A stretch of DNA of 64,000 bases from a virus (lineage: Duplodnaviria; Heunggongvirae; Uroviricota; Caudoviricetes). Positions 5,485 through 39,172 of the stretch are shown piece by piece. A model generated the notes under the pieces. That model was not told the origin of the DNA, made no database searches, and was given only the letters and a program-made list of their open reading frames with translations. How positions within the stretch are numbered: position 1 is the first letter of the stretch; each line of letters starts with the position of its first letter. The translations under genes and the position numbers were made by a program. The stretch is from IMG/VR virus record IMGVR_UViG_3300020045_008999, positions 224,001 through 288,000 of that record, one strand, 5' to 3'.

Positions 5485-5991
5485 TTATTTTAATATTTTA
5501 CCAATGTTTTCTAGACGAAGTGAATCTTGGTCCAAATATCCATCCCAATTATGTAGGGAGAAGTGAGCATCATGTTGCTTAATAAGTTGTTCGATGAGTG
5601 ATTTTATCATATCGATGTTATTTGGATTTCCATCAAAAGTCATTGACTTACCATCAGAATAATAAGTAAAAGAGTTGTTGAAATAAACTGCGACTAATAT
5701 ACCCGGTCTATAAGCAATTAAATATTTGCTACCTTTATAAACTACCCATTTACCATATAATAAATAGGTATATATAACTCGTGGTGTGTCAAACAACGAA
5801 CCCAATTTAGTATTATGATAATAAATATTGCTAAATAAACCAAATATACCATATGTAATAATGCCAAAAAGCATCGCATAAAGGTATGACGTACCGTAAT
5901 AATTACATATTAATAAAAGTGCCAGTGCTATCATAAAATGAGCTAGAACACCAAATATTATAAATGTATATAATTTATTTTTCTGTGACAT
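5485..5991 (-). CDS. membrane protein with C-terminal R-x3-I-x2-IL tag
   Basis: two N-terminal TM segments; ends RLENIGKILK. Confidence 0.6.
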   Translation of the reverse strand: MSQKNKLYTFIIFGVLAHFMIALALLLICNYYGTSYLYAMLFGIITYGIFGLFSNIYYHNTKLGSLFDTPRVIYTYLLYGKWVVYKGSKYLIAYRPGILVAVYFNNSFTYYSDGKSMTFDGNPNNIDMIKSLIEQLIKQHDAHFSLHNWDGYLDQDSLRLENIGKILK

Positions 5992-5996
5992 AATTA

Positions 5997-6599
5997 TTAT
6001 CCCATTTTAGGTCGGAATGATGTTTTCAAATCAAATCCTTTGTTGATAATTTTATTTGAATTTGTAATTGGTGCAATATTTGATTGTTTCTCATCAATCA
6101 TACTAGAAATGTAATTGGAAATCATGTGATATACTTTTTCGGCATCTAAATAACTAAAAAGATTGAAATCAGTGAGACGAGGATATTTCGTATAATCACT
6201 AATTTGTCCATTCCATCTATAAAACCCAACTAAAATTGGTGCGCCTTCAATTTTATTAATATTAGATTTGTCTTCCACAATAAGCCCACTAACTCTATAA
6301 CAATCATTATCCACACGGACATTATAATACAAATCTGACCTAATATCAGCATGACTAAATGGTAGTGGACGCTTTGTTGGTATTTCACCAATTAGTGCCA
6401 GGTCATCGCCATAATAAAAATTTCCATTGATACACATCCCATCAATTTTAAATCCACCTATAATTAAACAGAAATGACGTGTGCTAGACGACAGGTCCGA
6501 AACACTACCAGTTGTACGATCAAGTACTATTAGTGGGTCAATGCCATAAATACCCATTAGGTAGTCGTAGCCATCTTTGTATTTTGATATGATTTTCAT
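5997..6599 (-). CDS. conserved phage hypothetical protein
   Basis: MKIISKYKDGYDY..GID N-terminus and KI..KGFD.K.SFR C-terminus recalled from large phages. Confidence 0.6.
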   Translation of the reverse strand: MKIISKYKDGYDYLMGIYGIDPLIVLDRTTGSVSDLSSSTRHFCLIIGGFKIDGMCINGNFYYGDDLALIGEIPTKRPLPFSHADIRSDLYYNVRVDNDCYRVSGLIVEDKSNINKIEGAPILVGFYRWNGQISDYTKYPRLTDFNLFSYLDAEKVYHMISNYISSMIDEKQSNIAPITNSNKIINKGFDLKTSFRPKMG

Positions 6600-6666
6600 A
6601 AAAATAATATTTGCTTACAAATATAGTATTTTTCAACACATAAAGAGTAAAAATATACAAAAATAT

Positions 6667-7002
6667 TTATATTTTCTTTTCAACATATGTAACCACTTCA
6701 CCCGTTGCAAATCCTTTTTCGATTAATAATGGTAGAGAGGTGTTTTTACACCAGGCATATACCAAATAATTTTTGTAATTATCACAGACATATTCCCATC
6801 GAGTATCCCACAACATGCGATAAATTCCTTGGCGGCGATAATCTATCGAAACCCAAGCATCCATTAATTTTAATCGGTTGTTTGGTTCGATATTCATGAA
6901 CACATGGCCAACAGTTTCATTAGTGGACAAATCTATGGCAAACCACATTTCTACATTTTGAGCGTTAGGTTTCAGATGGGATATTATTATTTGGGATTTC
7001 AT
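6667..7002 (-). CDS. GNAT acetyltransferase
   Basis: acetyl-CoA motif A V..DYRRQGI; KGF near C-terminus. Confidence 0.8.
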   Translation of the reverse strand: MKSQIIISHLKPNAQNVEMWFAIDLSTNETVGHVFMNIEPNNRLKLMDAWVSIDYRRQGIYRMLWDTRWEYVCDNYKNYLVYAWCKNTSLPLLIEKGFATGEVVTYVEKKI

Positions 7003-7080
7003 AGCGTATATATTATTTTTATTAACATCAAAAATACATCAAAATAATTAATTATTTGTTACATTTGTAAAAAATATAAT

Positions 7081-7878
7081 ATGAATATTCACTTTACTGA
7101 CGTTAAATTATTTGAAAACTTAAAAAAGGCAACCTTAGCCAAAGTTATCATCGGAAGTAAGATGTATGGGACCAGTGTAGATGGTCACTCAGATACTGAT
7201 TATCTATACATTTATGCTACCTCGGAAACCGAATTATTATCATGTATTCAAAGTCACCACCAATTACAGTTCAGTGAAAATAAAGTCGATCATATTTTTG
7301 TATCATTACACAGTTTTATCAAAAATACATTAAGTGGTGATTCCACTATAAATTTCGAAGTAATACATTCGAATTCGTTAAATGGGACTGTCCTAGAATG
7401 GATTTCAGAGAAGCGAAATATGTTTTTAACGTATAGTGTGATCCGAAGTTATATTGGATTATGTAGGCGTGATATTAAGCATTTTGGTAAATATTCATCA
7501 GAGTATGAAAAACGAAAACGATTTGGACATATTATCCGCGGGGTAATTTACACAAGATCATTTTTAAATGGTTCTTTTGATTTTCTTAAATCAAACTTAG
7601 AATTGGTTAATACATTAAAAGAAATCGATTTCAATTCCGGAAAATTACTTCGCGAATATACATCAGAAGTATCAAAATTTCGCGAATTACTTACCTCATA
7701 TTACAATGACAACACATTATTGATTGCTAAGAATGTAAATGTCGAAGATGCAATAATATTCAATAAATTATTGATCAAAATGTGCGAGTCTGAAGTATTT
7801 AAATCGAAACAACTCATATTAACTAATTTCGATATGAGACCATTCATCAACAGTTATGAAAACTGGATTTCCTATTAG
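7081..7878 (+). CDS. Pol-beta superfamily nucleotidyltransferase (RlaP-like), copy 1
   Basis: IGSKMYG...SDTDY signature; I.SY.G...RD. Confidence 0.75.
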   Translation: MNIHFTDVKLFENLKKATLAKVIIGSKMYGTSVDGHSDTDYLYIYATSETELLSCIQSHHQLQFSENKVDHIFVSLHSFIKNTLSGDSTINFEVIHSNSLNGTVLEWISEKRNMFLTYSVIRSYIGLCRRDIKHFGKYSSEYEKRKRFGHIIRGVIYTRSFLNGSFDFLKSNLELVNTLKEIDFNSGKLLREYTSEVSKFRELLTSYYNDNTLLIAKNVNVEDAIIFNKLLIKMCESEVFKSKQLILTNFDMRPFINSYENWISY

Positions 7879-8076
7879 CTACATGAACCAATAAATATCA
7901 AGTATTCCGAGCTGCAATCGTCGATGATTTCCATCATAGTAAAGTGATTGATAAGAGAAATTAAAACAAAATGATATGTCAAGAATCACAATGTTTGTCA
8001 AATCAGTTACCCAGGTAGAATGTGGGGTGGGATTTGTTGAATCACATATTTCCAACCCATATTTATATAGTTTCAT
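7879..8076 (-). CDS. hypothetical protein
   Basis: short ORF continuing minus-strand operon. Confidence 0.45.
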   Translation of the reverse strand: MKLYKYGLEICDSTNPTPHSTWVTDLTNIVILDISFCFNFSYQSLYYDGNHRRLQLGILDIYWFM

Positions 8077-8080
8077 AATT

Positions 8081-9175: not shown

Positions 9176-9367
9176 AATATTATTTTATCGATTTCAATTC
9201 TTTTAATACATCCTTTAATATCATTATTCGCACTTTAAACGAAGTGATGTTCTCATAGGCAGAAAGATATTCAATCTTATCTTCAATTATTTTTATAGCA
9301 GCTTCCATATATGATATTTTTTACAAATATATGGTATTTACAACAATTATCCAAATCAACTATATTT

Positions 9368-9949: not shown

Positions 9950-10089
9950 CTATTAAGATTATATTTAATTCACTATATATTAAATGTGTATATGTTGTTT
10001 TTAATACGATAACATACAATTGAAGAAATGTTAATAAAAATATTCATTACACATGGTAGTTGTATTGTTTTTATTATTATATTTGTAGT

Positions 10090-10830: not shown

Positions 10831-11325
10831 ATGACTAATGCCGAAATTTGTGTAATTTTTTTAGCTGGGTGTATAGTTGTTTTATTATACCTGTTGATCA
10901 AGAATATTAATAGTAATAGTGTTATCAAAGATTTAATTAATGATAATGTGAAATTGAAACGAGAAAACGATGATTTAAATCTGAAAATATTAAATTCTAA
11001 AAATAAAAAAATACTAGATAAATGGAGAACCGGTGCATCCTGTATTCACTCAATGGATTTAGTCAACAACAAAGGTACCGATACAGAAGTATGCTTCATT
11101 GCATCATACACATCCGAAATAATAGAAATATCCGAAACAAAACTTAAAATAGCACCAATCAGTGTAATAACCAATGTGAGCTCACAAAATACCCCCAGTA
11201 CACTTGCTGGTATTCTGGCTTATGGAAATGGTTTATGGATTAATAAATACGACGCTGAGTTAATATTAGATAATGCACAAAACCGAATTTCAAAAATACA
11301 CGATATACTATCAAATGATGAATAA
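10831..11325 (+). CDS. membrane-anchored coiled-coil protein with C-terminal tag
   Basis: N-terminal TM; ends RISKIHDILSNDE. Confidence 0.55.
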   Translation: MTNAEICVIFLAGCIVVLLYLLIKNINSNSVIKDLINDNVKLKRENDDLNLKILNSKNKKILDKWRTGASCIHSMDLVNNKGTDTEVCFIASYTSEIIEISETKLKIAPISVITNVSSQNTPSTLAGILAYGNGLWINKYDAELILDNAQNRISKIHDILSNDE

Positions 11326-11860
11326 ATTAGAAAAAACAAGTAGGTATTTAGCAAAATTACTGCGACACAAACCGGAAGATTTACTAATGGATGTTGATGG
11401 TTATGTAGTAGTTAGTGATTTGTTGAGAAAGTTGTCAATTAATAATGCCGACCTTGATTGGATCGTAGAAAATAATGATAAAAAACGATTTGTTTATAAT
11501 ATTGACAAAACACTAATTAGGGCCGCTCAGGGACACAGTAAAGGTTTGGACATTGATATAAAAATGCAAGAATCATCAAGAGTAAATGTTCTATACCATG
11601 GTACGGCAGCCATAAATGTCAAGTCCATTATAAGTCTTGGTTTGGTACCAAAAAGTCGAAAACATGTTCACCTATCATCTGATGCAGAAACGGCACGGAA
11701 AGTCGGGCTAAGACACGCAAATGACGTTGTGGTGTTACAAGTAAACAGTGCTCAGATGCGAGCGGATGGTATTAAAATTTTCATTTCGGAAAATAACGTA
11801 TATCTCACTAATCATGTTGACTCCAAATACATTACATTTCCAAAAAAACCGAGCAATTAA
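11315..11860 (+). CDS. kptA: RNA 2'-phosphotransferase (Tpt1/KptA)
   Basis: LLRH, DKKRF, IRAAQGHS, LYHGT, R.HVHLS, VYLT motifs. Confidence 0.95.
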   Translation: MMNKLEKTSRYLAKLLRHKPEDLLMDVDGYVVVSDLLRKLSINNADLDWIVENNDKKRFVYNIDKTLIRAAQGHSKGLDIDIKMQESSRVNVLYHGTAAINVKSIISLGLVPKSRKHVHLSSDAETARKVGLRHANDVVVLQVNSAQMRADGIKIFISENNVYLTNHVDSKYITFPKKPSN

Positions 11861-11875
11861 TGTTCGGTTTTTTTT
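11842..11875. terminator. bidirectional intrinsic terminator
   Basis: AAAAAAACCGAGCA-ATTAA-TGTTCGGTTTTTTTT between convergent genes. Confidence 0.75.
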
Positions 11876-12285
11876 ATTTTATGTCTAAGCATTACTACGT
11901 AATCGTAAATATGCCCATATCCATCACTGATGTCTATTCGATGACAATCTTCCTCAAAATTAGCATCACCACTTTCATCAATATAACCAGAATGCGACAT
12001 TAGTATATACAACCAATAATCGTGTATGAATATTTCAATTTGATCGCATTCACCGTCATCTATATCAGTACTAATATATAAATTATTGTCAACTAATTCA
12101 AATGGTACCACATCCACCACACCCTTCAAATTTTTAAGTATATTGTAAATATCATTAATTTCATCATCAGATAGAGCATCGGTTTCGTTTCCATGCGCCT
12201 CTGAAAATTCCTCATAGGATATTTGTTCAACATTTTGAGTATGTAAATTTTCAATAAACATTTTGAATTTTTGTATCATTGCCAT
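11857..12285 (-). CDS. tandem paralog family member 11 (putative capsid-internal protein)
   Basis: MIQKFKMFIEN; IFIHDYWLY; HRIDISDG; start reassigned to 12285. Confidence 0.8.
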   Translation of the reverse strand: MAMIQKFKMFIENLHTQNVEQISYEEFSEAHGNETDALSDDEINDIYNILKNLKGVVDVVPFELVDNNLYISTDIDDGECDQIEIFIHDYWLYILMSHSGYIDESGDANFEEDCHRIDISDGYGHIYDYVVMLRHKIKKTEH

Positions 12286-12295
12286 TTTATATATG

Positions 12296-12709
12296 TTATA
12301 GTTTATTTTCGCTACGATGCATATATGCCCGATATTCATCATCAATTATATCATGATATTTTAATAAAACATCAAATATGTCATTAGATATATCAATTTT
12401 ATAATATACTGATTCTGGATCGTAATCTGAGGTAAATATGTATTCTACATATAACCAATAATCATCATCAATAAAAATTACCATTCGATCATCGTTATTG
12501 GCTGTTATATCAAACCAAATTTCTGAATATCCCGAATACTCATGCGGGTCCTCGATATCATATAAATCACATATTGTGGCTGTAATTTCATCCGGGATAA
12601 TAATATCATTGAAACCAATGCTCTTATATTCAACATACTCAGGTTCCGTTAATTTAACTATTACTTCATTTTCTACGCTCTCGGTAAATAATTTAAATTT
12701 TTTTATCAT
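12296..12709 (-). CDS. tandem paralog family member 10
   Basis: MIKKFKLFTES; FIDDDYWLY; YKIDISND. Confidence 0.85.
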   Translation of the reverse strand: MIKKFKLFTESVENEVIVKLTEPEYVEYKSIGFNDIIIPDEITATICDLYDIEDPHEYSGYSEIWFDITANNDDRMVIFIDDDYWLYVEYIFTSDYDPESVYYKIDISNDIFDVLLKYHDIIDDEYRAYMHRSENKL

Positions 12710-12712
12710 GTA

Positions 12713-13120
12713 TTATATATTAACAATTATTGTTTGCAATTCGGTGTCTAAGAATTTAGACAAAAATTCCAGCGATTCACTAACATCAATTTGCGCATAT
12801 GTTGTCAAATATTCATCATAATATTGTTGTAAAGATTCTAACTTCACATATAAATAATAATCATCATCACTAAAAATGTACCCGGTTATTGTATGATTAT
12901 ACGTAAATATCATCAACTTACCACTAGGGATATATTTTAAACCGGGCGGAACACCTGCATTTTCAAAACTTTGTTTCACAATATCAAATAACGGGCGGAA
13001 CAATTTAGATTTCGCTGATCGTGCACTAGCTTTGAATATGCTTTCATATTCGGACTGTGTTATTATGGTGATATTTTCACTATTTACACTCTCTGTAAAC
13101 CGTATGTATTTTTTAATCAT
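12713..13120 (-). CDS. tandem paralog family member 9
   Basis: MIKKYIRFTES; FSDDDYYLY; AQIDVSES. Confidence 0.85.
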   Translation of the reverse strand: MIKKYIRFTESVNSENITIITQSEYESIFKASARSAKSKLFRPLFDIVKQSFENAGVPPGLKYIPSGKLMIFTYNHTITGYIFSDDDYYLYVKLESLQQYYDEYLTTYAQIDVSESLEFLSKFLDTELQTIIVNI

Positions 13121-13135
13121 TAGAATATTTTAGTT

Positions 13136-13546
13136 TTATAAAAATTGTATTGGGGGTATAGAGTTTATAAATTTCTCAACATTAATTACACCCTCACTAA
13201 TATCAATTTTAGCACAATCTGATTCATAGTGAGCATCATTACCATTATCAATTTTCCTTTCAACATTTACATAGATATAATAATCGGAATCCGAGAAAAT
13301 ATATACATAAATACTACGATCAGTTACCATGAATGTTATTCTTTCACCATCGCCAAATTCCATAACAGACATAGTTAATCCCTGCCGTTCTACGTAATCA
13401 GTGATAATGGAAAGTATAGCAGCACACAGATCACTATCGATTACTATCCGTGAATTTTGATAAAAATCGTCAAACTCTTGTTCAGATATTATCTCAATTT
13501 CATCATTACTTATGCTTTCAACAAATCTTATAAATTTTTTAATCAT
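13136..13546 (-). CDS. tandem paralog family member 8
   Basis: MIKKFIRFVES; FSDSDYYIY; AKIDISEG. Confidence 0.85.
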   Translation of the reverse strand: MIKKFIRFVESISNDEIEIISEQEFDDFYQNSRIVIDSDLCAAILSIITDYVERQGLTMSVMEFGDGERITFMVTDRSIYVYIFSDSDYYIYVNVERKIDNGNDAHYESDCAKIDISEGVINVEKFINSIPPIQFL

Positions 13547-13943
13547 TTATTTCGTTTATAATTTCGTTTATAATCACTGAAGCCTTTTTTACTGAATCGA
13601 ATCCATCACCTATGTCAATTTTATATGAATACTGAACTGCACTTGATGACGTGATTGAGATAACATACATCAGATATGCCCAATAGTCATCATCAACGCA
13701 CAGAAGAAGCATATCATCGGTTTCATTTATAAATGAAGATAATCTACTACCAACCCGCGTACTAGTACCAGACAATCTACATGCACTATATTCCGAGAAC
13801 ACTGCAATTACTTCATCACATAAGCTCTCAGGTATTATCACACCGTTTTGTATAGCATCTGAAAATTCCTGGTTAGTTATTTCAATTACTTCATCATCAC
13901 CTTTAGACTCTAAAAACATTTTAAATTTCTTAATCATTATCAC
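13539..13943 (-). CDS. tandem paralog family member 7
   Basis: MIKKFKMFLES; VDDDYWAY; YKIDIGDG. Confidence 0.85.
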   Translation of the reverse strand: MIMIKKFKMFLESKGDDEVIEITNQEFSDAIQNGVIIPESLCDEVIAVFSEYSACRLSGTSTRVGSRLSSFINETDDMLLLCVDDDYWAYLMYVISITSSSAVQYSYKIDIGDGFDSVKKASVIINEIINEIND

Positions 13944-14361
13944 TTATCAATTTTTTCAGGATATTCCAATATTCACTCATATTGCTATACCCGTCGGAGA
14001 TGTCTATTTTGTGATACCAGGCTCTCACACCCGGTTGTGGAACAAAACGTACATAACCATCAGATGTGGTGATGATTTTATATTCTGGGATAGTATAAGT
14101 AATATACAACCAATAGTCATCATCTATGAATAAGTAAATATTTTCCATCGTTTTAGATTCACCATGTAATTCACAATCACTATTGTCATAGTATAATACA
14201 ATTTTATTCATTTCACTAGTTATATCGACAAACATATCATGTTCAATTTTGACTTGAATATTGCCTCGGGCACGATCCCAATCATCGCGAGTGATTTGTA
14301 CTACATTTTCTTCGGGATTGTTATTTTCTAAAAATAGTTTAAACTTAGTAATCATCATCAA
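13930..14361 (-). CDS. tandem paralog family member 6
   Basis: MITKFKLFLEN; FIDDDYWLY; YHKIDISDG. Confidence 0.85.
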   Translation of the reverse strand: MMMITKFKLFLENNNPEENVVQITRDDWDRARGNIQVKIEHDMFVDITSEMNKIVLYYDNSDCELHGESKTMENIYLFIDDDYWLYITYTIPEYKIITTSDGYVRFVPQPGVRAWYHKIDISDGYSNMSEYWNILKKLISDND

Positions 14362-14782
14362 TATTTAATTTATCTCTAATAGCTTCTATAATATTTAAAT
14401 ATTCCGGAACGTTATCATAACCATTACCAATATCTATTTTGTGATACAATTCGGTTGGTTCGATAATCTCATCTAATCGGAATCCTGGTTTATACGACAT
14501 TGAATAATTTACATATAACCAGTAATCATTATCCATAAACAAATTCAGCTGGTCATAAAAATTCGATTCAGCGCTAATGCTAAACCTAGTATCATCATAA
14601 TCAAAATAAAATTCTCTTCTTGGATTAAAAACAGCACGAATTCCAATTAGTGAATTTTCTGGGAATACTATGCGATCATTAAGCCATGCATAATTCCAAT
14701 CACTTAAAGTGATCTCTATTACGACATCATCTGTATTAATATTTTCCAAAAATAATTTGAAATTAGTTATCATTTTGATCAT
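14345..14782 (-). CDS. tandem paralog family member 5
   Basis: MITNFKLFLEN; FMDNDYWLY; YHKIDIGNG. Confidence 0.85.
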   Translation of the reverse strand: MIKMITNFKLFLENINTDDVVIEITLSDWNYAWLNDRIVFPENSLIGIRAVFNPRREFYFDYDDTRFSISAESNFYDQLNLFMDNDYWLYVNYSMSYKPGFRLDEIIEPTELYHKIDIGNGYDNVPEYLNIIEAIRDKLNIDDDY

Positions 14783-14792
14783 TTTATAAAAT

Positions 14793-15170
14793 TTAGTTCT
14801 CGGCTGTTATGTTAATAATCTCACAGTATTTCTCAGTATACTCATATCCATTAGCAATATCTATTTTGTGATATTGGTAATTCGGGGACTCTTGACAATA
14901 TTTTACCCACATATAATAGTCTGTATCAATAAATATATACAGATTAATGTTACGATACTCGAATGACATTGAATTCGTTGCATCGCTTTCACATGGTGTG
15001 TATTTTATATCAATATACGGCCTGAATGCGTCGATTATTACATCAACATCAGATTGACCAAATGAAACACTTGATTCTTCAAAAGTTTCATAATATTCAT
15101 ACTCACTAACTTCTTCGACATACTCGTTTGCGTTATTATTTTCCAGAAATAATTTAAAATTAGTTATCAT
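14793..15170 (-). CDS. tandem paralog family member 4
   Basis: MITNFKLFLEN; FIDTDYYMW; YHKIDIANG. Confidence 0.85.
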   Translation of the reverse strand: MITNFKLFLENNNANEYVEEVSEYEYYETFEESSVSFGQSDVDVIIDAFRPYIDIKYTPCESDATNSMSFEYRNINLYIFIDTDYYMWVKYCQESPNYQYHKIDIANGYEYTEKYCEIINITAEN

Positions 15171-15594
15171 CCTCTCCCATTAATTTATATTCTTCCTCTA
15201 ACATCACTTTGGTTTTATCTAACAGCTGCATGTAATCCGAAATATAATTATACCCATCAGAAATATCAATTTTATGATAAAGCTCACATGGTTCATAATA
15301 AAAATCAAACTCATATCTTACCCACAAATAATAATCTGAATCAAAAAACATTTCATACCTACCCGGGTCATTTCCTATATCGAAGTTCAACATATGGACA
15401 ATATCCCCACCATCGTCATCATCGCGATTAAGTATGTGATATTTACTAAAACCGGATATGATTTTATCACAATCATCATCATTAATATGGATACTATTAG
15501 TTTTAAACTCATCCCAAAATTCTGCGATATTCACTTCAACAACATTATCTGAATCTGCGATACTTTCTAAAAATAATTTATATTTTTTTATCAT
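15160..15594 (-). CDS. tandem paralog family member 3
   Basis: MIKKYKLFLES; FFDSDYYLW; YHKIDISDG. Confidence 0.85.
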   Translation of the reverse strand: MIKKYKLFLESIADSDNVVEVNIAEFWDEFKTNSIHINDDDCDKIISGFSKYHILNRDDDDGGDIVHMLNFDIGNDPGRYEMFFDSDYYLWVRYEFDFYYEPCELYHKIDISDGYNYISDYMQLLDKTKVMLEEEYKLMGEDDN

Positions 15595-16091
15595 TATTCT
15601 CTATTTCTTTTTTGATCCACTATTTCTAAATATTCTGCAATATGGATAAACCCTTCACTAATATCGATTTTGTGGTAAATTGATAAGTAATTATCAGAAT
15701 CTTCATAATCCTCGTCGTCATATATTTGATCGTCATCCCAATAATCACCATCACCATCACCATCACCATCACCATCACCATCAATTTGATCGACATCCCA
15801 GTACTCGCGATCTACCATTCTAATATCATAATTTATATATAACCAATAATCACTATCCAAGAATAAATAAACACTGTCGTCTGGTCCGTTCATGGATGCC
15901 TCTTTACCACTACGCGCCCTAGAAAAGATTAAATCTGATTCAACAAGTGTATTGTTTATATCATCAACAAATGATTGATCTATGTGAATAGCATACAGAT
16001 TATATTGATCATTATACTCATCTGCACTAATTTCAACAATATTATCCTCGGTGTCTATACTTTCTAAAAATAGTTTATATTTTGTTATCAT
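15594..16091 (-). CDS. tandem paralog family member 2 (with DG-repeat loop)
   Basis: MITKYKLFLES; FLDSDYWLY; YHKIDISEG. Confidence 0.85.
   Translation of the reverse strand: MITKYKLFLESIDTEDNIVEISADEYNDQYNLYAIHIDQSFVDDINNTLVESDLIFSRARSGKEASMNGPDDSVYLFLDSDYWLYINYDIRMVDREYWDVDQIDGDGDGDGDGDGDYWDDDQIYDDEDYEDSDNYLSIYHKIDISEGFIHIAEYLEIVDQKRNRE
15745..15783. repeat. hexanucleotide microsatellite (TCACCA)x6.5 encoding poly(DG)
   Basis: direct reading of sequence. Confidence 0.95.
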
Positions 16092-16095
16092 TACT

Positions 16096-16506
16096 CTACT
16101 CTATGTTTCTTTTTTGATCCACTATTTTCAAATATTTTTCAATGTGAATGAGACCTTCACTGATGTCTATTTTGTGATATAATGAACTGTAATTTTCGTT
16201 GGGAGCACCACTAGCGGATACCGGCATAATATCGTAATTTACATATAACCAATAATCATTATCAATAAAAACGCTCATCAGCTCATCATTATGTGAATAA
16301 TTAAATGCGCTTATTTCACTGCTAGATATTTTCAAAATTGAATCAGATGAAGTTCTACCCAATGCAATATTCAATTCATGTAAAAAACCCGGATCCATAC
16401 AAATACTATCTAACTCAAACTGTGCATCGTATTCATCTACACTAATTTCAATGATATTATCTTCGGTGTCTATACTTTCCAAAAATAATTTAAATTTTTT
16501 TATCAT
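16096..16506 (-). CDS. tandem paralog family member 1
   Basis: MIKKFKLFLES; FIDNDYWLY; YHKIDISEG. Confidence 0.85.
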   Translation of the reverse strand: MIKKFKLFLESIDTEDNIIEISVDEYDAQFELDSICMDPGFLHELNIALGRTSSDSILKISSSEISAFNYSHNDELMSVFIDNDYWLYVNYDIMPVSASGAPNENYSSLYHKIDISEGLIHIEKYLKIVDQKRNIE

Positions 16507-17449: not shown

Positions 17450-18433
17450 ATGAAAACAGTACTTATTGTCGATGGCAATTATATTTTAACTAAAAATGTA
17501 TTTAGTCTCGCTAAAAATAATGCATTATATCCATACTTAGAAATGACTTTGGATCAGGCCATTAAAAATTACCAAAGTTGGTATCATTTTGATAAAATTT
17601 TCGTAGTTTCGGATTCTAGAGAAAAGTCTTGGCGAAAAAGAATTGATGATTCCTATAAGGGAACTCGTAAAAAAGATACCACAATAGACTGGGATTTTGT
17701 ATATCAAACATATGCGACGTTCAAAGATAATGTTTCCAATGTAAGGAACGTTACTGTTCTTGAGGCACCTACGGTTGAGGGCGATGACTGGATTTCGTAT
17801 TTAGTACATGAGAATAATGCTAAAGGAATTTCCACCGTTACTATTACCAATGATTATGACATCAAGCAGTTGGTAAAATTCCAAATGAATCCTCGCTACA
17901 TTAATGTAATAACAAATGAAATGATGTCAAGACAACTTATTTTTCTACCTAAGAATTATGAAATATTCTTAGATAAAATAAGAAATGACTTCGATCCATA
18001 TGATATTTTCAATCAAAACACTGATATGAATTTTGTGAAAATGATCGACGGTTTGCTCCAAAAATGTAACTTAGTTGAAATAAACCCAATAGAATGTTTG
18101 TTGCTTAAAGTTATATCTGGTGATAAAAGTGATAATATATCATCTGTGCACGAAACATATAACAATGGAAAGAAACGCGGAATTGGTGATGCAGGGGCTA
18201 AAACAATTTTAGGATTATATATTGATGAATTTGGTGAACCAGATGGTTTGTCTGACGATTTAATTGATAATTTATCCGACGTTATTCTGGAAAAGAAAAA
18301 GTTAAATCGCCATGAATTCGGTGACATTGTGAAAAATATTAAAAAAAATATATCAATGGTCGATTTAAGTATGGAATCCATTCCAACCGATATAATCAAT
18401 ATAATGAAAGACGTCTATGATCAAAATAAATAA
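17450..18433 (+). CDS. rnh: T4-like RNase H / 5'-3' flap exonuclease
   Basis: IVDGN, SWRK...YKGTRK, EGDD, DYD, GDKSDNI motifs. Confidence 0.9.
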   Translation: MKTVLIVDGNYILTKNVFSLAKNNALYPYLEMTLDQAIKNYQSWYHFDKIFVVSDSREKSWRKRIDDSYKGTRKKDTTIDWDFVYQTYATFKDNVSNVRNVTVLEAPTVEGDDWISYLVHENNAKGISTVTITNDYDIKQLVKFQMNPRYINVITNEMMSRQLIFLPKNYEIFLDKIRNDFDPYDIFNQNTDMNFVKMIDGLLQKCNLVEINPIECLLLKVISGDKSDNISSVHETYNNGKKRGIGDAGAKTILGLYIDEFGEPDGLSDDLIDNLSDVILEKKKLNRHEFGDIVKNIKKNISMVDLSMESIPTDIINIMKDVYDQNK

Positions 18434-18872
18434 AGAGCATGCCAAATTCATGGAATTACATGGTGGGGAAATAATAAAAAAAAACATGCCAATCCAAGAT
18501 CCATTGAAAATAGCGAATCGTTTTTCAAATTATGAAATAGTTAGTTGGTTTTATGAAATATTAATGCTATATTTGAATCATAATTTAAATTCACATCGAA
18601 ATCAAGATCCTAGTTATCATCATAACGTTATGATTGACCTAAATAAGGCTATTCAAATACAACAACCAACAAGATCAAAAGTAATTGGTAAACATTTTAA
18701 TTATGATTTAAATGTATATGAATATGAACTGGAAAATGGCGATTTCATTCCAGTAGTACCTCAGAAAACATATAAATCAATTATTGATATTCGTATTTTT
18801 CCACTAGAGTTCATTAAACTTATAGATGTGGCAACCTATCGATCATTATCAATCGAACAAATAATTATATAA
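18417..18872 (+). CDS. hypothetical protein with C-terminal tag
   Basis: ends RSLSIEQIII. Confidence 0.55.
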   Translation: MIKINKEHAKFMELHGGEIIKKNMPIQDPLKIANRFSNYEIVSWFYEILMLYLNHNLNSHRNQDPSYHHNVMIDLNKAIQIQQPTRSKVIGKHFNYDLNVYEYELENGDFIPVVPQKTYKSIIDIRIFPLEFIKLIDVATYRSLSIEQIII

Positions 18873-18874: not shown

Positions 18875-19288
18875 ATGGCAGAATTACTAAAGGTATTCAA
18901 AGCAATGACGGAATACGGTGATGGGGACTGGAATAGTCTGGAAGATATTCACAAAGTGGAATGTTTTTTTATATTCAACCGATATTTCACCAAGATGTAT
19001 CCAGAAAAGGCACAATTGTTAAATGATAAAGAAATCGATAAAGTAGTTGCAATGGATTTATGGAGATTATTCATCAAAAGTGAAAAATATCCTAAAAATT
19101 TCTGGAGTAAGACATCCGATGTTAAAATAAAATTAGAAAAAGGGGAATACACGGAAAAGGACATTCAATTAATAATCAACAAATTGGATATCAAGATAGA
19201 TGAATTTAATTTATTGTATAACAACCATAAAGACATTCTTGACGAAGAATTAAAATATTATAAAAATTTAGAAAAAAATGACAAATAG
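18875..19288 (+). CDS. possible clamp-loader small subunit (gp62-like)
   Basis: F.FNR.F...P..A..LN pattern resembling gp62 family; size and context; weak. Confidence 0.35.
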   Translation: MAELLKVFKAMTEYGDGDWNSLEDIHKVECFFIFNRYFTKMYPEKAQLLNDKEIDKVVAMDLWRLFIKSEKYPKNFWSKTSDVKIKLEKGEYTEKDIQLIINKLDIKIDEFNLLYNNHKDILDEELKYYKNLEKNDK

Positions 19289-19826
19289 AATAGCCGAAGA
19301 AAAAAACGTGTGGTATACAATCCAAGTACAACCTAATCGCGAAAAAGGAATTGCCGAAAAAATAAATAATGAAATCGAAAAAGGTTTCTTAAAAGGGGTA
19401 AGTCAGACTTTGGTACCCACCGAAGTATCCATGACTATAAAAGATAATAAGCGTGTTAAACGTGAAAAAATCTTATATCCCGGTTATGTTTTCGTAGAAG
19501 CATCTTCATTGGGTGAATTACAATATGTAATTAAAAATACACCAGGTGCGAGTTCACTACTCAAAGACAGAAGTGGGGCGATATTACCAATCAGACAAAG
19601 TGAGATTGATCGCATGTCAGTTTATATGAAAACAGAAGAAGCCGCTATAAGTTCTATAAAATTCATAAAAGATGAGAAGGTATCGATCATAAGTGGTCCA
19701 TTTAACTCATTTAAAGGCACTATAAGCGAAGTACTCAATAATAAAGTAAAAGTATCTGTTTCCATATTCGGGCGTGTAACAGAAGTCGAATTAGACTCTA
19801 TACAGATTCAGAAATGTATTGATTAA
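19278..19826 (+). CDS. nusG: transcription elongation factor NusG
   Basis: WY.IQV..N.E; YPGYVFVE; KOW IISGPF..F.G.I.EV; VSIFGR.T.VEL. Confidence 0.95.
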   Translation: MTNRIAEEKNVWYTIQVQPNREKGIAEKINNEIEKGFLKGVSQTLVPTEVSMTIKDNKRVKREKILYPGYVFVEASSLGELQYVIKNTPGASSLLKDRSGAILPIRQSEIDRMSVYMKTEEAAISSIKFIKDEKVSIISGPFNSFKGTISEVLNNKVKVSVSIFGRVTEVELDSIQIQKCID

Positions 19827-19831: not shown

Positions 19832-20056
19832 CTAAGAACGATCCATGTTTAATATATCATGGATCGCTTCTTTTCGATTATATTCTACCATGTAAATTTC
19901 AAAAAGTTTCAGATCCTCGATCTGAAAGCGAGACACTTGATATTCACTGCCGCATATCCATCCACATAATACTACTTCGCCTTCAATACTCAATACTCGC
20001 ATCCTATTACCACCAGTATTTTTAATCACAATATCTTGTATATTAATACTAACCAT
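19832..20056 (-). CDS. YodC/DUF2158-like protein with C-terminal tag
   Basis: DIV...TGG.RM.V...V.CGW...F..EDL; ends RKEAIHDILNMDRS. Confidence 0.6.
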   Translation of the reverse strand: MVSINIQDIVIKNTGGNRMRVLSIEGEVVLCGWICGSEYQVSRFQIEDLKLFEIYMVEYNRKEAIHDILNMDRS

Positions 20057-22092: not shown

Positions 22093-23229
22093 CTAAATCA
22101 CGATTTCATTAAGAAATTTACGAGCATTCTCTAAACGGATTGTTTCCGATAGTATTCGTTCTTCGATTTTTATATTAATATCAAACCCATTAATTACCGA
22201 CATGACATAATTAAAAGATACGTCTTTGTTATTTGCTCTGGCAAAGGCACCAATATCATATCCAGTTGCAACATATTTTTCATACAATATATTGATAGAT
22301 TTAAGACAGTTGGATTTGTATGTATTTATTTTATCAACAATTAAATCAACTTCTTTATTTTTCATTGGATCATTTAACACAGACAATATATCGTCAATCT
22401 CACCGGATAATATCAATCGGATTAAATCATTTTCACGATACAATGAATCAGTATATAAACCATGTCTATCAAAATACCATTGTGTCTTTTGCTTAACCAT
22501 TAATCCATTTGTGAATATTACCACAAATCCTTCAGAATCTACTTCGGTTTTAGCTAATTGTATAATCTCGTCTAATGTATAATCAAATGAAAGTCTGGTT
22601 TTTATAAAGGACGGGACCGAATCGAGTGACATATATTCACCACTTATATTATTACGAAGTTGTAGTAAAATAAGACTTCTACCTTTGTATTGTAGTACAA
22701 TTCTATTATCAATTGAAACATATTCAAATATTGGTATAATATTGTTGTCAATTGAGTTCTTAACAAATTCATATAAGTGGGCATCCGAATTGATTATATC
22801 ATTTGCGGCCACTGCTGGATCGGATATAAATGATCCCTTAGACTTAGCTACTATATTTCCATTTGGTAATTTTATGAACGAGGCTAATGAACCATCTTCT
22901 TTATAACTAACCGTATCAATTGTGAGATTTTTTATAATATCATACTGGGTTAATTCACTTTGATTAATATTAAAAAATTTTTTCAAAAGTAAATAACGAT
23001 TGTATAAAGTCCCGTCAGAATTCCACACAAAAGTAAGACCACGAAGTTCATGTGCTTTATAAGATTTACCAGGCACCGGCTCTTCAAAAGTATTTGGTGA
23101 TGCTAATTTATAATCAAAAATGGACACGTTAAACCCCTGTACTACATATTTCATTTCATAGAATAAAAACCCGTCAGTAACGGCACATATTTCTAAACAT
23201 TCTTCATAAGTTGGTAAAAACTGCACCAT
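22093..23229 (-). CDS. rnlA: T4 Rnl1-family RNA ligase
   Basis: ELRGLTF, KFFN, motif I KEDGSL, FEY, EGFVV, VKQKT.WY. Confidence 0.9.
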   Translation of the reverse strand: MVQFLPTYEECLEICAVTDGFLFYEMKYVVQGFNVSIFDYKLASPNTFEEPVPGKSYKAHELRGLTFVWNSDGTLYNRYLLLKKFFNINQSELTQYDIIKNLTIDTVSYKEDGSLASFIKLPNGNIVAKSKGSFISDPAVAANDIINSDAHLYEFVKNSIDNNIIPIFEYVSIDNRIVLQYKGRSLILLQLRNNISGEYMSLDSVPSFIKTRLSFDYTLDEIIQLAKTEVDSEGFVVIFTNGLMVKQKTQWYFDRHGLYTDSLYRENDLIRLILSGEIDDILSVLNDPMKNKEVDLIVDKINTYKSNCLKSINILYEKYVATGYDIGAFARANNKDVSFNYVMSVINGFDINIKIEERILSETIRLENARKFLNEIVI

Positions 23230-23759
23230 TATTCTTTTAAAATATTTCTTAAATTAGACATTCTCATTATGTATTTATCATCTAAGCCAAGTCGGGCTCC
23301 TTCGTATGTAGTTGCAAACGTCGTCCCATCCTTATTGCGAATGAGTATCGGAAATGCTTTATTGGTTAAAACAACATCAATTATGTGACAACTCTCACCC
23401 ATGCAGTCAAAATCCAATCCCACTACATTATCCGGAAATCCTAACCGCATCGAATCACGCGTATGCATTTCATAGTTTTTATCAGCAAGTGATTGTGATA
23501 TTAGGGTAATCACAATGTGCCCACTATACATAACCCTAAAATCATTTACATCAGCTTTAATCTTTTCTTCAATTTCTAAGATCCGAAAAAAATCTCGTAT
23601 CTCAGATAATAGATCTGGTTTAAATTTTTTTGGCAAAGTCAAATACACAGTTAAACATCCGGATTGTGTTCTAATTTTCAAAGATATATCGGTTTGCTCA
23701 AGTTTTGATAAGTCCTCAATATATTTAAATATTTTATCGTTTACTTTCTTCCGATTCAT
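23229..23759 (-). CDS. hypothetical protein with C-terminal tag
   Basis: ends RMSNLRNILKE. Confidence 0.55.
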   Translation of the reverse strand: MNRKKVNDKIFKYIEDLSKLEQTDISLKIRTQSGCLTVYLTLPKKFKPDLLSEIRDFFRILEIEEKIKADVNDFRVMYSGHIVITLISQSLADKNYEMHTRDSMRLGFPDNVVGLDFDCMGESCHIIDVVLTNKAFPILIRNKDGTTFATTYEGARLGLDDKYIMRMSNLRNILKE

Positions 23760-31769: not shown

Positions 31770-31773
31770 TCTA

Positions 31774-34079: not shown

Positions 34080-34187
34080 TTGTCTCAATTATTTATAATA
34101 TTTATACCTAAAAACGTTTGAATTGTTTAAATAAAAATTTTTAATTAAACAATATCTAAATTATACACTATATAGTATAATAAAAAC

Positions 34188-35561: not shown

Positions 35562-35596
35562 AAAATGCCCAGTTTCAATGAACTGGGCATTTTTTT
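35560..35596. terminator. bidirectional intrinsic terminator
   Basis: AAAAAATGCCCAGTT-TCAATG-AACTGGGCATTTTTTT. Confidence 0.85.
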
Positions 35597-36269: not shown

Positions 36270-36395
36270 AAAAATTTTTATTAGATTATTACCTTACAAA
36301 TATAAGGAAAAAATTATCCATTTTCCTATTTTCCCCGTAGTATTTTCATTCATCAAAAAGTATATAAAAAATGCATTATTATACAAATAAATATG

Positions 36396-36403
36396 TATAT
36401 TTG
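36396..36403 (+). promoter_or_regulatory. Bacteroidota-type -7 promoter element TAnnTTTG (representative)
   Basis: TATATTTG; about 18 such sites directly upstream of operon heads in this window. Confidence 0.7.
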
Positions 36404-36434
36404 CATCTAAACTTATAATTAACTACATATTTTT

Positions 36435-37004
36435 ATGGAAAAATTAACCAAAGGTGTCAAGCTTATTTTATTGATAAATATTGCTGCTTTTATTTTTAGT
36501 TCGATATTCTCACAGTTCACCGCTGATTATTTAGCGTTGCATATTTATAGTAGTCCAAAATTTTATTTATGGGAATTCATCACTTCACTTTTTATACATG
36601 GTGGTTTAATTCATTTATTATTTAATATGATGACTTTAGTATTCTTAGGCCCATATGTTGAAAAATATTATGGTACAACACGTTTTTATATAATTTATAT
36701 CATCATGGGTATTATAGCGGGCCTATTACAAATATCATTGATGTCAATTGACATTCCACTTGTTGGGGCATCCGGATCATTATTTGGCGTACTTACATTA
36801 TATGTAATACAAAATTACAATACTAAAATGTTTTTAATGTTCATACCGATCGGTATCAAAGCCAAATATATACTAATTGGTTTAATTGCGATTGAACTCT
36901 ATTCAGCATTCTTTGTTTCTGATAACGTTGGACATTTTGCACATTTAGGTGGGGCAGCATCTGGTTTATTAATACATAAATATTATCATGGTGTACGTAA
37001 TTAA
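36435..37004 (+). CDS. rhomboid intramembrane serine protease
   Basis: HLLFNM, GASG, AHLGG; multiple TMs. Confidence 0.92.
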   Translation: MEKLTKGVKLILLINIAAFIFSSIFSQFTADYLALHIYSSPKFYLWEFITSLFIHGGLIHLLFNMMTLVFLGPYVEKYYGTTRFYIIYIIMGIIAGLLQISLMSIDIPLVGASGSLFGVLTLYVIQNYNTKMFLMFIPIGIKAKYILIGLIAIELYSAFFVSDNVGHFAHLGGAASGLLIHKYYHGVRN

Positions 37005-37335
37005 TCGATTAAGTACCCGATCAATAGCTATAAAATGTACCATACCTTTAGTTTTTACGGATGATTACAGTGTTGGTATGGTTAATCATTCAATTATATT
37101 TCGCTTGAATGATGACAATAATGTTTATTACATGAAGCACAAATCAAGTGATAAGTTACTCAATTTAGCTTCTGGTAAATATGGATTGCGAAAACATCAT
37201 ATGTATTATGATTATACCCATGTGGTTATTGATGCTATGGAATTTGTAATACCATGTAGAATCATAAGTATACCAAGCATAAAGGCCAGAAGACGAATAG
37301 TAATTAAACATTTATTGGATGATGGAAAGGATTAA
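36988..37335 (+). CDS. hypothetical protein with C-terminal tag
   Basis: ends RRIVIKHLLDDGKD. Confidence 0.5.
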   Translation: MVYVINRLSTRSIAIKCTIPLVFTDDYSVGMVNHSIIFRLNDDNNVYYMKHKSSDKLLNLASGKYGLRKHHMYYDYTHVVIDAMEFVIPCRIISIPSIKARRRIVIKHLLDDGKD

Positions 37336-37651
37336 CGCGGATCAGTATTCTGCATTAGTGTCATTTCCGATAGAAATAGAGGCCGGTGTTGTGATTGGTT
37401 TTATCACAAAGACTATCGAATTCAATAAAGATAACTATGGTGAATACCACGTAACATTTAATGATTTTCACTTATTGCGTGAAAGTATATCTGATGATTT
37501 CAATATACCATATGAACATATCGGGTTTAATGTTAAAGAAGTATACGATGATGTGGAACAAATAAAATATAATGATATTGCCAATGCTTATTATTTTGAA
37601 ATCCCGAAAGCGGTATTACGGAATTATAAAATAAAAATACTTTTAGAATAA
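37319..37651 (+). CDS. hypothetical protein with C-terminal tag
   Basis: ends RNYKIKILLE. Confidence 0.55.
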   Translation: MMERINADQYSALVSFPIEIEAGVVIGFITKTIEFNKDNYGEYHVTFNDFHLLRESISDDFNIPYEHIGFNVKEVYDDVEQIKYNDIANAYYFEIPKAVLRNYKIKILLE

Positions 37652-37674
37652 ATATGGATCATAATATCATAAAT

Positions 37675-37708
37675 AAAAAAGGCACTCGAATTTCCAAGTG
37701 CCTTTTTT
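37675..37708. terminator. bidirectional intrinsic terminator
   Basis: AAAAAAGGCACT...AGTGCCTTTTTT. Confidence 0.8.
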
Positions 37709-37709
37709 A

Positions 37710-38630
37710 TTATTTTTTTTCACGGTGATATTGCCAAGGAATTCCTTTTTCATAATCAGCAATTGCATTATCGATCAGTGTTTGTGTATCAATTAGTAAT
37801 AGTTGTGCTTCCTTTTCCAAAACATTACTAAGTCTACTTTCTAGATCAACTTTATATTGGTCCAATTCTTTACGTTCCTTTTGATTACTATATTCAACTT
37901 CAATGATCTTTGTATTGTGATTAGCATTTTCTAACTCAGCTGTTCTTACTTTATCTTCACGTTCCATTACTGCCTCGAGTCTTTTATTAATATCATTTAT
38001 GGTGGTGAGCATTTCTTCTTCAATTTCTTTATTATTTACAAAATTTGATTCTGTGGACTTAGCCAATCTCACTTCTAATGTTTTAATAGTTTGTTGTGAT
38101 TGTTCAATAACACCATTTAACGCTTCTATATCAGCAGACATAGAAGATACTTCGGTCATCAATGCTTCTATTCTTAGGATGTGTTTTTTATCATCGATTG
38201 ATTTCAAAGCCGTATTGCGTTCCATTGTATTATTGAAGTCAAGTTCTAAATGTGATAGTTTATCAATCGATTTATTGTACTCTAATTTCAAAGCGGCCAA
38301 TTCATTTTCCAATAAAATAACTTCCTTGGAATTACTATTTTGATTTAAATTATCCGATTTAAAATGTTCTTCGATGTAGGGTAGAATTTTTTTAGCGACC
38401 ACACTTGGTTGCGCGATCTTATTGGTTTTTAAAAAAAGAATGAAATCAGTTTTAAAATCAATAAATTGAAAATAATCTGGATTGTTTTCTACTACTATTG
38501 GATCCATCTTGACGCTGCCATCCTTCCCTACATATTTGTAGTCAATAATAAATGCCTTAGCTTTTAATATGACTATTTTTTTATCATCAGTTGTTAATTG
38601 AAAATCTTTTAAAATTTTATATTTTGACAT
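37710..38630 (-). CDS. coiled-coil protein (late)
   Basis: long heptad-rich region; TTTATATATA upstream. Confidence 0.65.
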   Translation of the reverse strand: MSKYKILKDFQLTTDDKKIVILKAKAFIIDYKYVGKDGSVKMDPIVVENNPDYFQFIDFKTDFILFLKTNKIAQPSVVAKKILPYIEEHFKSDNLNQNSNSKEVILLENELAALKLEYNKSIDKLSHLELDFNNTMERNTALKSIDDKKHILRIEALMTEVSSMSADIEALNGVIEQSQQTIKTLEVRLAKSTESNFVNNKEIEEEMLTTINDINKRLEAVMEREDKVRTAELENANHNTKIIEVEYSNQKERKELDQYKVDLESRLSNVLEKEAQLLLIDTQTLIDNAIADYEKGIPWQYHREKK

Positions 38631-38713
38631 GAGTGTATAATATTTATCTCTTATATATAAAAATTCTTGCTTAGTTGGGTTTTTTTGATTATTTTTGTTT
38701 AAATTATTTTTAT

Positions 38714-39172
38714 ATGGATAAAGTTAATTGTGTTTACCGACTTGGTTTATTTTTCAGTGAATATGTAGGAATGGATAATATTAAATTTCATTCACCAGAT
38801 TACCTATATGAAAAAATGGAAGTATTATTTAACATACCAGAGATGATATTAACACCATATGAACACGAATGGGGTTGTCATGAATTTATTATTAAATACG
38901 AAGGCACATGGGGGCCTATTACTGATACCTGTATTACTCGATTTATACTTTTTATATTCCATGCACGTGCACCTACTAGTGCAGAGAATTATATCAACAA
39001 CTTCGAAAAGTTTATATGTCCAATTCAAGATATAGTTTTAACTAATAACTATTTCCCAATGCATTTCAAAACTCTCAATTCTATTAATGAAATAATAGAA
39101 TTGTTAGAAAGATCTTCTGCCCACAAAAATATTATCCGATCATTATCAATAAAAAAACTTTTATCAAAATAA
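38714..39172 (+). CDS. hypothetical protein with C-terminal tag
   Basis: start reassigned to ATG 38714; ends RSLSIKKLLSK. Confidence 0.55.
   Translation: MDKVNCVYRLGLFFSEYVGMDNIKFHSPDYLYEKMEVLFNIPEMILTPYEHEWGCHEFIIKYEGTWGPITDTCITRFILFIFHARAPTSAENYINNFEKFICPIQDIVLTNNYFPMHFKTLNSINEIIELLERSSAHKNIIRSLSIKKLLSK

Follow-up and report, generated by a model that had tools for sequence, protein, structure and literature searches.

Why should ten otherwise unrelated proteins encoded in one stretch of phage DNA end in the same few residues? The window, i.e., the whole stretch of 64,000 nucleotides analysed here, belongs to a 596,785-bp IMG/VR phage in which a T4-type capsid gene is present. An earlier note on its sequence had listed ten C-termini with the pattern R-x3-[IL]-x2-[IL][IL]. 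All ten ORFs exist with the endings described (Table 1), the positions quoted in the note being the low coordinates of the carrier ORFs, and in every one of them the motif ends one to five residues before the stop, as was claimed. The window found no match among deposited phages by megablast. A published description of the tag was not found in the searchable literature, in accord with the note, which knew of none.

Table 1. Tagged ORFs of the window and neighboring genes referred to in the text.
Feature	Position	Strand	Remarks
Carrier ORF, 168 aa	5485..5991	-	N-terminal part TM-like; tag lies within the last 10 residues; codons of the tail at 5488-5547
Carrier ORF, 164 aa	10831..11325	+	TM-like segment; tag ends 4 residues from stop
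Carrier ORF, 181 aa	16862..17407	+	No match to a family; one residue between tag and stop
Carrier ORF, 151 aa	18417..18872	+	Missing from syntenic slot of relative L013
Carrier ORF, 74 aa	19832..20056	-	Weak DUF2158/YodC-like match, residues 6-48
Carrier ORF, 87 aa	21302..21565	+	Tag ends 4 residues from stop
Carrier ORF, 176 aa	23229..23759	-	Adjoins RNA ligase gene
Carrier ORF, 115 aa	36988..37335	+	Variable slot 5' of metallopeptidase-vWA gene
Carrier ORF, 110 aa	37319..37651	+	17-nt overlap with carrier 36988..37335; same slot upstream of metallopeptidase-vWA gene
Carrier ORF, 165 aa	38675..39172	+	Variable slot upstream of metallopeptidase-vWA gene
DUF2201 metallopeptidase-vWA protein	43521..44993	+	Context only; candidate reader
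AAA+ (MoxR-like), weak match	45241..46371	+	Context; partner of vWA protein; conserved in 483-kb relative
DnaK/Hsp70, phage-encoded	51818..53677	+	Context only; candidate reader

The 868 ORFs of the whole genome contain the pattern 114 times. In 72 of them it is terminal, with 0-6 residues between it and the stop (one residue in 35 cases and two in 19). The internal rate predicts 1.5 terminal occurrences (Poisson P ~1e-92). Counting against shuffled termini, a check suggested in the earlier note, gave ~1.6 terminal motifs (maximum 6) when whole proteins were shuffled and 2.5 (maximum 8) when only the last 20 residues were. The reversed motif stands at a protein end only three times in the genome. 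Of the 97 window ORFs with 50 aa or more, 10 are tagged, compared with 0.145 (maximum 2) in 200 within-protein shuffles. Taken together, the internal-position, shuffle and reversed-motif controls rule out a chance origin. No comparable enrichment was observed at the N-terminus, where the motif starts within the first 8 residues in six ORFs. The label is indeed phage-wide, as had been supposed from the ten cases, and marks about one protein in twelve here and up to one in seven in relatives (8-15% of the proteome).

In its fullest form the consensus covers ~14 residues: K at -4, an invariant R, [IL] at +4, [IL][IL] at +7/+8, one to five further residues and the stop. It ends with either I-L-[KN] (IL-type) or L-G-I (GI-type). 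Among the fixed residues, R is encoded by five codons, I by three and L by five; since their codon use equals the genome-wide synonymous use, selection acts on the peptide. The amphipathic helix that had been proposed for it fares less well. The helical hydrophobic moment of the tails is 0.26 against 0.30 for other C-termini, and in the best non-LRR model five tail residues only are helical, with low confidence. A membrane-targeting helix is likewise unlikely, given the frequent acidic or amide residues at +5/+6, the invariant R and a moment that is not raised. A prohead-protease site (I-x-E) was also rejected as the function of the tail, as E occupies +6 in only 14 of the 72 tails.

Once the tails are removed, BLAST divides the 75 carriers into 49 groups unrelated to one another, 45 of them singleton bodies; one family accounts for 20 carriers. 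The ten bodies of the window are all singletons in all-against-all BLASTP, which bears out the statement that they have no other similarity, and simple paralogy of the carriers is ruled out by this clustering. The carriers are 66 to 345 aa long and their genes are tightly packed in operons, with a median gap of -0.5 nt to the upstream gene. Pfam and PHROGs searches gave almost no matches for the 75 carriers; the single Pfam match was DUF4893, and a replication or transcription domain was found by Pfam on none of them. TM-like segments were observed in six carriers genome-wide, two of them in the window (5485-5991 and 10831-11325). The 11 acidic paralogues encoded at 11857-16506 are all without the tail.

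The tag is portable: it has been grafted onto a leucine-rich-repeat (LRR) scaffold and onto a YodC-like domain, and it has been gained or lost by orthologues. Among the 122 LRR paralogues, 20 bear the tag in place of the family's native ending and 98 have their own native tail, which occurs nowhere else; three Flavobacterium chromosomal LRR homologues likewise have the native tail. The tag-bearing members stand in 8 groups of the LRR tree, 3 of them within a 92-tip clade (support 0.87), a tree too weak for counting exchange events. In the case of the YodC-like protein, the domain match ends at residue 48, so that the tag sits on an appended extension of ~25 residues, as the earlier note had described. 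Its full-length homologues of 70-74 aa among the representatives fit the motif in three of four cases, the fourth being a tag-like variant, and one further homologue from a word search fits it too; YodC-like domains that occur as repeats in giant proteins are without the tail. The family encoded at 39915-41309 has the tail in the three relatives L056, L059 and L061 and lacks it here and in L001, L015 and L057. The LRR family was considered as the reader of the tag and rejected, because it is missing from the 483-kb relative and gives a single weak match in the 642-kb relative, both of which are tagged.

The comparison with these relatives takes the observation beyond the earlier note: the tag spans the genome, is shared by a clade of huge phages and has a second terminal variant, L-G-I. 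Terminal enrichment is found in both relatives. The 483-kb relative has 36 IL-type and 9 GI-type tails, and the 642-kb relative LR756502.1 has 101 and 47 (15% of ORFs), while GI-type tails are missing from the 597-kb genome. Exact ending at the carboxy-terminus was observed in 40 of the 47 GI-type tails. In the 597-kb genome, homologues of three GI-type proteins of the 642-kb phage end in the IL form; of 18 carriers in the 642-kb phage, 15 have tagged homologues in the 483-kb phage. Both relatives have D at +1 and K at +3, whereas these positions vary in the 597-kb genome. These data show that the consensus changes in concert between genomes and that tails are retained in orthologues whose bodies diverge. 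Weak homologues of the 18417..18872 protein in the 642-kb and 483-kb relatives have likewise tag-like tails. The 23229..23759 protein matched only itself in a word-based search of 5.8 billion proteins; by BLASTP, a weak homologue in the 483-kb relative (27% identity) also ends in the tag. Relatives have other tag carriers in the variable slot that precedes the metallopeptidase-vWA gene, and in them carriers are clustered directly upstream of this gene. When genes of the 597-kb genome were subtracted from those common to both relatives, 182 remained as candidate GI-specific readers, too many for naming one.

Further afield, a 20-column tail profile proved too insensitive for six-frame searches of the relatives and gave chance matches only against the PDB. 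Among 80 bacterial loci with the DNA pattern of the tag, the pattern lies at a real ORF end in three only, the rest being mostly out-of-frame chance matches, which gives no hint that any host protein family uses the tail. Two tagged genes were found in a Flavobacterium prophage of temperate type (small-phage terminase_3, resolvase).

Models of two carrier families give different pictures of the tail. A 250-aa family keeps it in 119 of 120 homologues (36-100% identity), and in the AlphaFold2 model the body has pLDDT of 90-98, the last 10 residues 62 and the final residue 53. A tail that is kept and yet predicted to be unpacked is what one typically sees in short linear docking motifs. In the LRR carrier model, the tail lies within the C-terminal helix 105-129 (pLDDT ~97); being inside such a long and very confident helix, it may also act as a structural cap in these carriers. 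Foldseek gave no significant match for either model. The tail has the general features of short linear motifs, being short, more conserved than its flanks, outside the folded core and present on unrelated proteins.

We therefore consider it probable that the tail, as a portable short linear motif, labels proteins in trans for an address or for docking, and that one shared receptor grips many carriers by it. Such a receptor would co-evolve with the phage lineage and hold small, fast-evolving accessory proteins by the tail; we infer its existence as a single species as well as its identity. The leading though tentative candidate is the phage's own Clp unfoldase together with two ClpP. The unfoldase is a two-ring protein of 699 aa with AAA, AAA_lid_9, AAA_2 and D2-small domains and without Clp_N, and all three proteins are conserved in a relative with 55-60% identity. 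The tail could then act as a terminal degron or tether in two parts, similar to ssrA, and would time the removal of the accessory proteins or deliver what they bind. Pore-engaged degrons end exactly at the carboxy-terminus, as GI-type tails mostly do; IL-type tails tolerate one to five trailing residues, hence the free carboxylate may not be strictly read. Clp, DnaK and vWA/MoxR are conserved in every relative examined, and phylogenetic profiling thus cannot choose among them. Rather speculative is the fuller proposal of a sorting code of the megaphage clade, with interchangeable IL and L-G-I tags read by the phage (most plausibly by Clp/ClpP) for the scheduled destruction of accessory proteins or of the host targets that they hold.

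A reader supplied by the host has also to be weighed. The tail might dock onto a conserved Bacteroidota protein such as RNA polymerase, ClpXP, the ribosome or a part of the divisome; small orphan carriers in dense operons do resemble host-takeover genes, and for the Flavobacterium prophage, with its small-phage terminase and two tagged proteins, a host-encoded reader fits better than a megaphage-encoded one. This explanation is nevertheless unlikely as the concerted shift of the consensus and the wholesale loss of a variant favor a phage-encoded reader, unless the hosts differ, and as the DNA pattern so rarely lies at bacterial ORF ends. Quite unlikely, in our view, is that the tail is a peptide for loading cargo, binding capsid, scaffold or core in the prohead interior in the manner of encapsulin targeting peptides; dozens of small proteins would then be packaged and, together with the DNA, injected as a ready-made anti-defense set. 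The capsid protein is gp23-like (HK97 fold), the carriers resemble T4 internal proteins in being small, fast-evolving and accessory, and in relatives they adjoin the metallopeptidase-vWA/MoxR pair, for which a role in virion assembly was proposed (Iyer et al.). The L-G-I end of GI-type tails is found within the consensus of the short C-terminal peptides of encapsulin cargo (PMC8346489), but IL-type tails are unlike it, and the encapsulin pocket uses an N-terminal helix in place of which most other HK97-fold proteins have an extended N-arm (PMC8346489). Moreover, the carrier genes are dispersed across 597 kb away from the shell gene (444.6-446.3 kb), six carriers have TM-like segments, and the promoter-like ATATATAG motif found ahead of the capsid gene lies upstream of only 7 of 75 carriers compared with 49 of 193 core genes.

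The remaining explanations dispense with a common reader. An intrinsic element, i.e., a helix that caps or self-associates each protein for its own fold or oligomerization, is suggested by the LRR carriers, in which the tail replaces the native C-terminal cap, but it is improbable overall: the invariant tail is the lowest-confidence part of the confident 250-aa family model, the carriers have different folds (LRR, YodC-like beta domain, TM proteins), orthologues differ in whether they have the tail, and a fold-specific cap would not shift in concert across unrelated proteins. A nucleic-acid signal at gene ends, or descent from one very divergent family, could be read from the A/T-rich tails, the close coupling of carriers to their neighbors and the one family that comprises 20 carriers. 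Both are largely refuted by the codon choice at fixed residues, the 45 singleton bodies, the range of lengths and the grafting of the tag onto families whose other members are without it, and we give them hardly any credence.

If a single receptor does read the tail, 72 proteins here, 148 in the 642-kb relative and many metagenomic ones would form one functional class, isolated orphans would become clients of one machine, and the tag would mark LRR binders wired to it. This would give experimenters a way into the dark matter that the largest known phages encode. The concerted switch between the two tag variants amounts to an experiment run by nature, from which comparative genomics could identify the receptor. 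If served by a dedicated reader, a portable tag of ten residues could be useful as a tool as well.

Several known systems invite comparison. Clamp-binding C-terminal tails occur in T4 gp43, gp33 and gp55 and as the PIP box, and like the tag they equip several clients of a single hub, unrelated to one another, with a terminal h-x-x-h-h core. The clamp, one of the phage proteins that the earlier note proposed to screen, is however an unlikely partner, because the DNA polymerase of the phage has a clamp tail of another, T4-like hydrophobic-acidic kind. Microcompartment targeting is ruled out, as BMC shell proteins (PF00936) had no match in the genome while control genomes matched. Family 1 encapsulin peptides and T4 capsid-targeting sequences are short terminal addresses that bring unrelated proteins to one HK97-fold shell. 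The T4 sequence, however, is an N-terminal leader removed by the prohead protease, whereas the tag is C-terminal; an encapsulin cargo gene adjoins the shell gene, whereas tag carriers are scattered and mostly without the capsid-type promoter motif; and the GI-type tail has only L-G-I in common with the family 1 consensus containing G-S-L-G-I-G-S-L-K.

Poxvirus ankyrin-repeat proteins with PRANC/F-box-like ends are likewise a large paralogous family of repeat binders with a common C-terminal handle, comparable to the 20 tagged LRR proteins. Such a handle could plug a bound target into a degradation machine. PRANC is, however, a folded domain read by host Skp1, whereas the tag is a motif of 10-14 residues; most LRR paralogues here have no tag, and Pfam detected no PRANC or F-box domain among the 75 carriers. 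The C-terminal degrons or tethers of Clp proteases (ssrA with SspB, or the ClpX-binding tail of SspB) are also transferable peptides of ~10 residues with two recognizable halves, and for them a cognate AAA+ unfoldase and ClpP are available in the same genome here. The tag ends in I-L-[KN] or L-G-I and lacks the ClpX/ClpA degron signature (terminal L-A-A type or basic MuA type). Whereas ssrA is added by tmRNA and ends in L-A-A, the tag is gene-encoded, unrelated in sequence and present on 8-15% of the proteome. The sorting code, if true, would give a virus its own counterpart of ssrA or ubiquitin-style tagging.

All ten window ORFs whose C-termini the earlier note had quoted as sharing the tag R-x3-[IL]-x2-[IL][IL] end exactly as it wrote. 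ORFs of at least 50 aa were called greedily over the whole genome (n = 868), and this regular expression occurs 114 times in them; 72 of the 114 occurrences end 0–6 residues from the stop, with a sharp peak at 1 and 2 residues. The internal positions would predict 1.5 terminal matches, so the terminal excess on which the earlier note had made its proposal depend is borne out. Shuffles gave 1.6, or 2.5 when the last 20 residues alone were shuffled, and the reversed motif, taken as control, is terminal three times. Within the window, the tag was found on 10 of 97 ORFs vs 0.145 in shuffles. A position matrix from the tails retrieved 74–77 terminal carriers (ORFs ending in the tag) vs 11–19 internal sites. 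The extended consensus in this genome, counted from the invariant R, is K/R at −4, A at −3, R, I at +4, N at +5, D/E at +6, I at +7 and L at +8, followed by K and the stop. In the tails, arginine is encoded by five codons, isoleucine by three and leucine by five, in genome-wide proportions, and therefore the conserved object is the peptide.

When 75 carriers were compared by BLASTP with their tails removed, 49 groups were obtained (one each of 20, 5, 3 and 2 members, and 45 singletons), all ten window carriers being singletons. Pfam matches were observed on one of the 75 and PHROG matches on five, none of them informative. For the window carrier near 23 kb, word matching against 5.8 billion proteins returned no match besides itself, and BLASTP gave one weak homologue in a 483-kb relative (see below). 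On the YodC-like carrier the tag had been described as an appended extension, a description which holds: a weak DUF2158/YodC-like domain (residues 6–48) is accompanied by the extension. The motif fits three of its four full-length homologues (70–74 aa) among representatives, the remaining one ending in a tag-like variant, and also a fifth homologue from the word search; proteins of 950–2,700 aa with a repeated YodC-like domain match this ORF in the domain only.

IMG/VR contigs recovered with a degenerate nucleotide pattern of the tail proved to share genes with the genome under study. The loci of the metallopeptidase-vWA gene in eight relatives hold 0–5 tagged genes each, often in a slot syntenic with positions 36988–39172 of the window. 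Two relatives, the 483-kb IMG/VR record and the 642-kb LR756502.1, were analysed as whole genomes. The former has 36 carriers of this IL type (0.9 expected) and nine of a second, GI type, while the latter has 101 and 47, respectively, amounting to 15% of its ORFs. The GI type, R-[DNE]-x-K-L-x2-[LI]-G-I-COOH, has its upstream half in common with the IL type (K at −4, R, D/N/E, x, K, L) and forms the exact carboxy-terminus in 40 of the 47 cases. In the genome under study no GI tail occurs, and its homologues of three proteins that are GI-type in the 642-kb phage bear the IL ending. The two relatives likewise share one orthologue pair in which the tail types disagree. Positions +1/+3 are D/K in both relatives and variable in the genome under study. 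Therefore, tails on unrelated proteins change their consensus together. A 5-kb stretch of the Nitrosopumilus MAG OZ250174.1 also has six hits to the degenerate pattern, all in register; no ORF of 40 aa or more ends in any of them, and a tandem repeat with no connection to the tag is their probable source.

Carriers have cross-genome homologues far more rarely than other proteins, both in the genome under study (3/72 vs 193/796) and in the 642-kb relative (20/148 vs 367/816). Among 18 carriers with homologues between the 642-kb and 483-kb phages, the tail is kept in 15, the remainder mostly missing the regular expression by little. The family of the window ORF near 40 kb has the tail in three relatives and lacks it in the genome under study and three other relatives. 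One conserved family (250 aa, 156 homologues in metagenomes) ends in S-R-N-x-R-I-D-D-I-L-N and keeps this tail in 119 of 120 homologues among the matches listed, at 36–100% overall identity. In its AlphaFold2 model, obtained with 67 homologues, pLDDT is 90–98 over most of the body, 62 over the last ten residues and 53 at the final one, and the helix there comprises five residues only. Linear motifs that fold on a partner typically stand out as best conserved yet least packed, and the modelled tail, as the best-conserved and least-packed part, would fit this pattern.

The group of 20 carriers belongs to a 122-member leucine-rich-repeat (LRR) family with mutually exclusive C-termini, 98 members ending in a family-specific tail and 20 in the tag. 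The family-specific tail was found nowhere else in the proteome of the genome under study. The family also occurs in a few Flavobacterium genomes, where three chromosomal homologues end in the family-specific tail; the copy in a Flavobacterium azizsancarii prophage, 50% identical to the megaphage paralogues, ends in the tag, as does its neighbour two genes upstream. In the model of an LRR carrier the tail lies inside a long C-terminal helix (pLDDT ~97) and may double as a solenoid cap. Neither this model nor that of the 250-aa family has a significant PDB neighbour.

The IMG/VR record (596,785 bp, 31.9% GC) is 98% complete by CheckV, and the window spans its bases 224,001–288,000. The standard code fits, because ORFs cover 92% of the genome and TAA is the main stop. 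A T4 gp23-type capsid protein, a gp44-like clamp loader, DnaK and the metallopeptidase-vWA protein with its AAA+ neighbour are encoded. A family B DNA polymerase profile matches two ORFs ~110 kb apart, its N-terminal part at 442 kb and its C-terminal part at 333 kb, with one in-frame TAA at the start of the latter match; this suggests a polymerase split across both. In the window, a NusG-domain protein adjoins a 5′-3′ exonuclease gene. A family conserved among the relatives is also present in the uncultured phage records LR745206.1 (634,780 bp) and LR756502.1 (642,428 bp). The Mahaphage clade, which infects Bacteroidetes, includes some of the largest genomes (Al-Shayeb et al. 2020, PMC7162821). 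No description of such a tail was found in the literature on the motif strings, phage Clp systems and huge phages; the MoxR and metallopeptidase-vWA pair and phage ClpP were described without a shared tail (Iyer et al. 2021, PMC7824862). Among indexed windows of other genomes, no stretch resembling the IL motif or its GI variant was seen.

Coordinates of features in the window, the whole genome and a Flavobacterium contig
Feature	Sequence	Position	Strand	Remark
5′-3′ exonuclease gene	window	17450-18433		
NusG-domain protein	window	19278-19826	+	PF02357, E 2.4e-16
YodC-like carrier	window	19832-20056		
Carrier near 23 kb	window	23229-23759		
Syntenic slot of tagged genes	window	36988-39172		
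ORF near 40 kb	window	39915-41309		
LRR family	genome	33.7-179.6 kb and 188-218 kb		outside window
ClpP paralogue	genome	326015-326686	-	
Polymerase match, 333 kb	genome	333267-334724	+	
Polymerase match, 442 kb	genome	442722-444281	-	
Capsid gene, T4 gp23-type	genome	444612-446285	-	
ClpP paralogue	genome	465015-465734	-	
Two-ring Clp unfoldase	genome	531557-533656	+	699 aa, without Clp_N
F. azizsancarii prophage-like stretch	NZ_JAMZNK010000005.1	locus positions 3117-7907		large terminase and serine resolvase, then two small tagged genes

We consider it probable that the tag acts in trans through a common reader. Loading of tagged cargo into the capsid or prohead is an improbable form of this. 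The motif (T)AATATATAG is enriched 7–9 fold within 10–39 nt 5′ of start codons genome-wide (79 genes for ATATATAG). The promoter-like ATATATAG lies 10–39 nt upstream in 76 of the 79 genes having it, the capsid gene included, whose (T)AATATATAG motif is 38 nt upstream. (T)AATATATAG is a candidate late-type promoter favouring core genes, and 7 of 75 carriers vs 49 of 193 core genes stand behind ATATATAG, which is suggestive, not decisive, against capsid loading. A host hub as reader, to which the tagged genes in the small Flavobacterium prophage point, is unlikely too. Other candidates were rejected: the sliding clamp, as the DNA polymerase ends in a different tail (which we take to be reminiscent of T4 gp43); a microcompartment, as the genome has no shell genes; and the LRR family, of which the 483-kb relative has no member and the 642-kb one just one weak match.

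Within the common-reader proposal, the phage Clp machine is the leading candidate, though a tentative one. The set of unfoldase and both ClpP paralogues is complete, conserved at 55–60% identity and retained in the relatives; the 642-kb relative adds a third ClpP-like ORF. The unfoldase lacks the adaptor-binding N-domain; therefore, recognition of the tag would be direct, as for terminal degrons. SspB and ClpX/ClpA each recognise a different part of ssrA, and the tag resembles it in being two-part as well.
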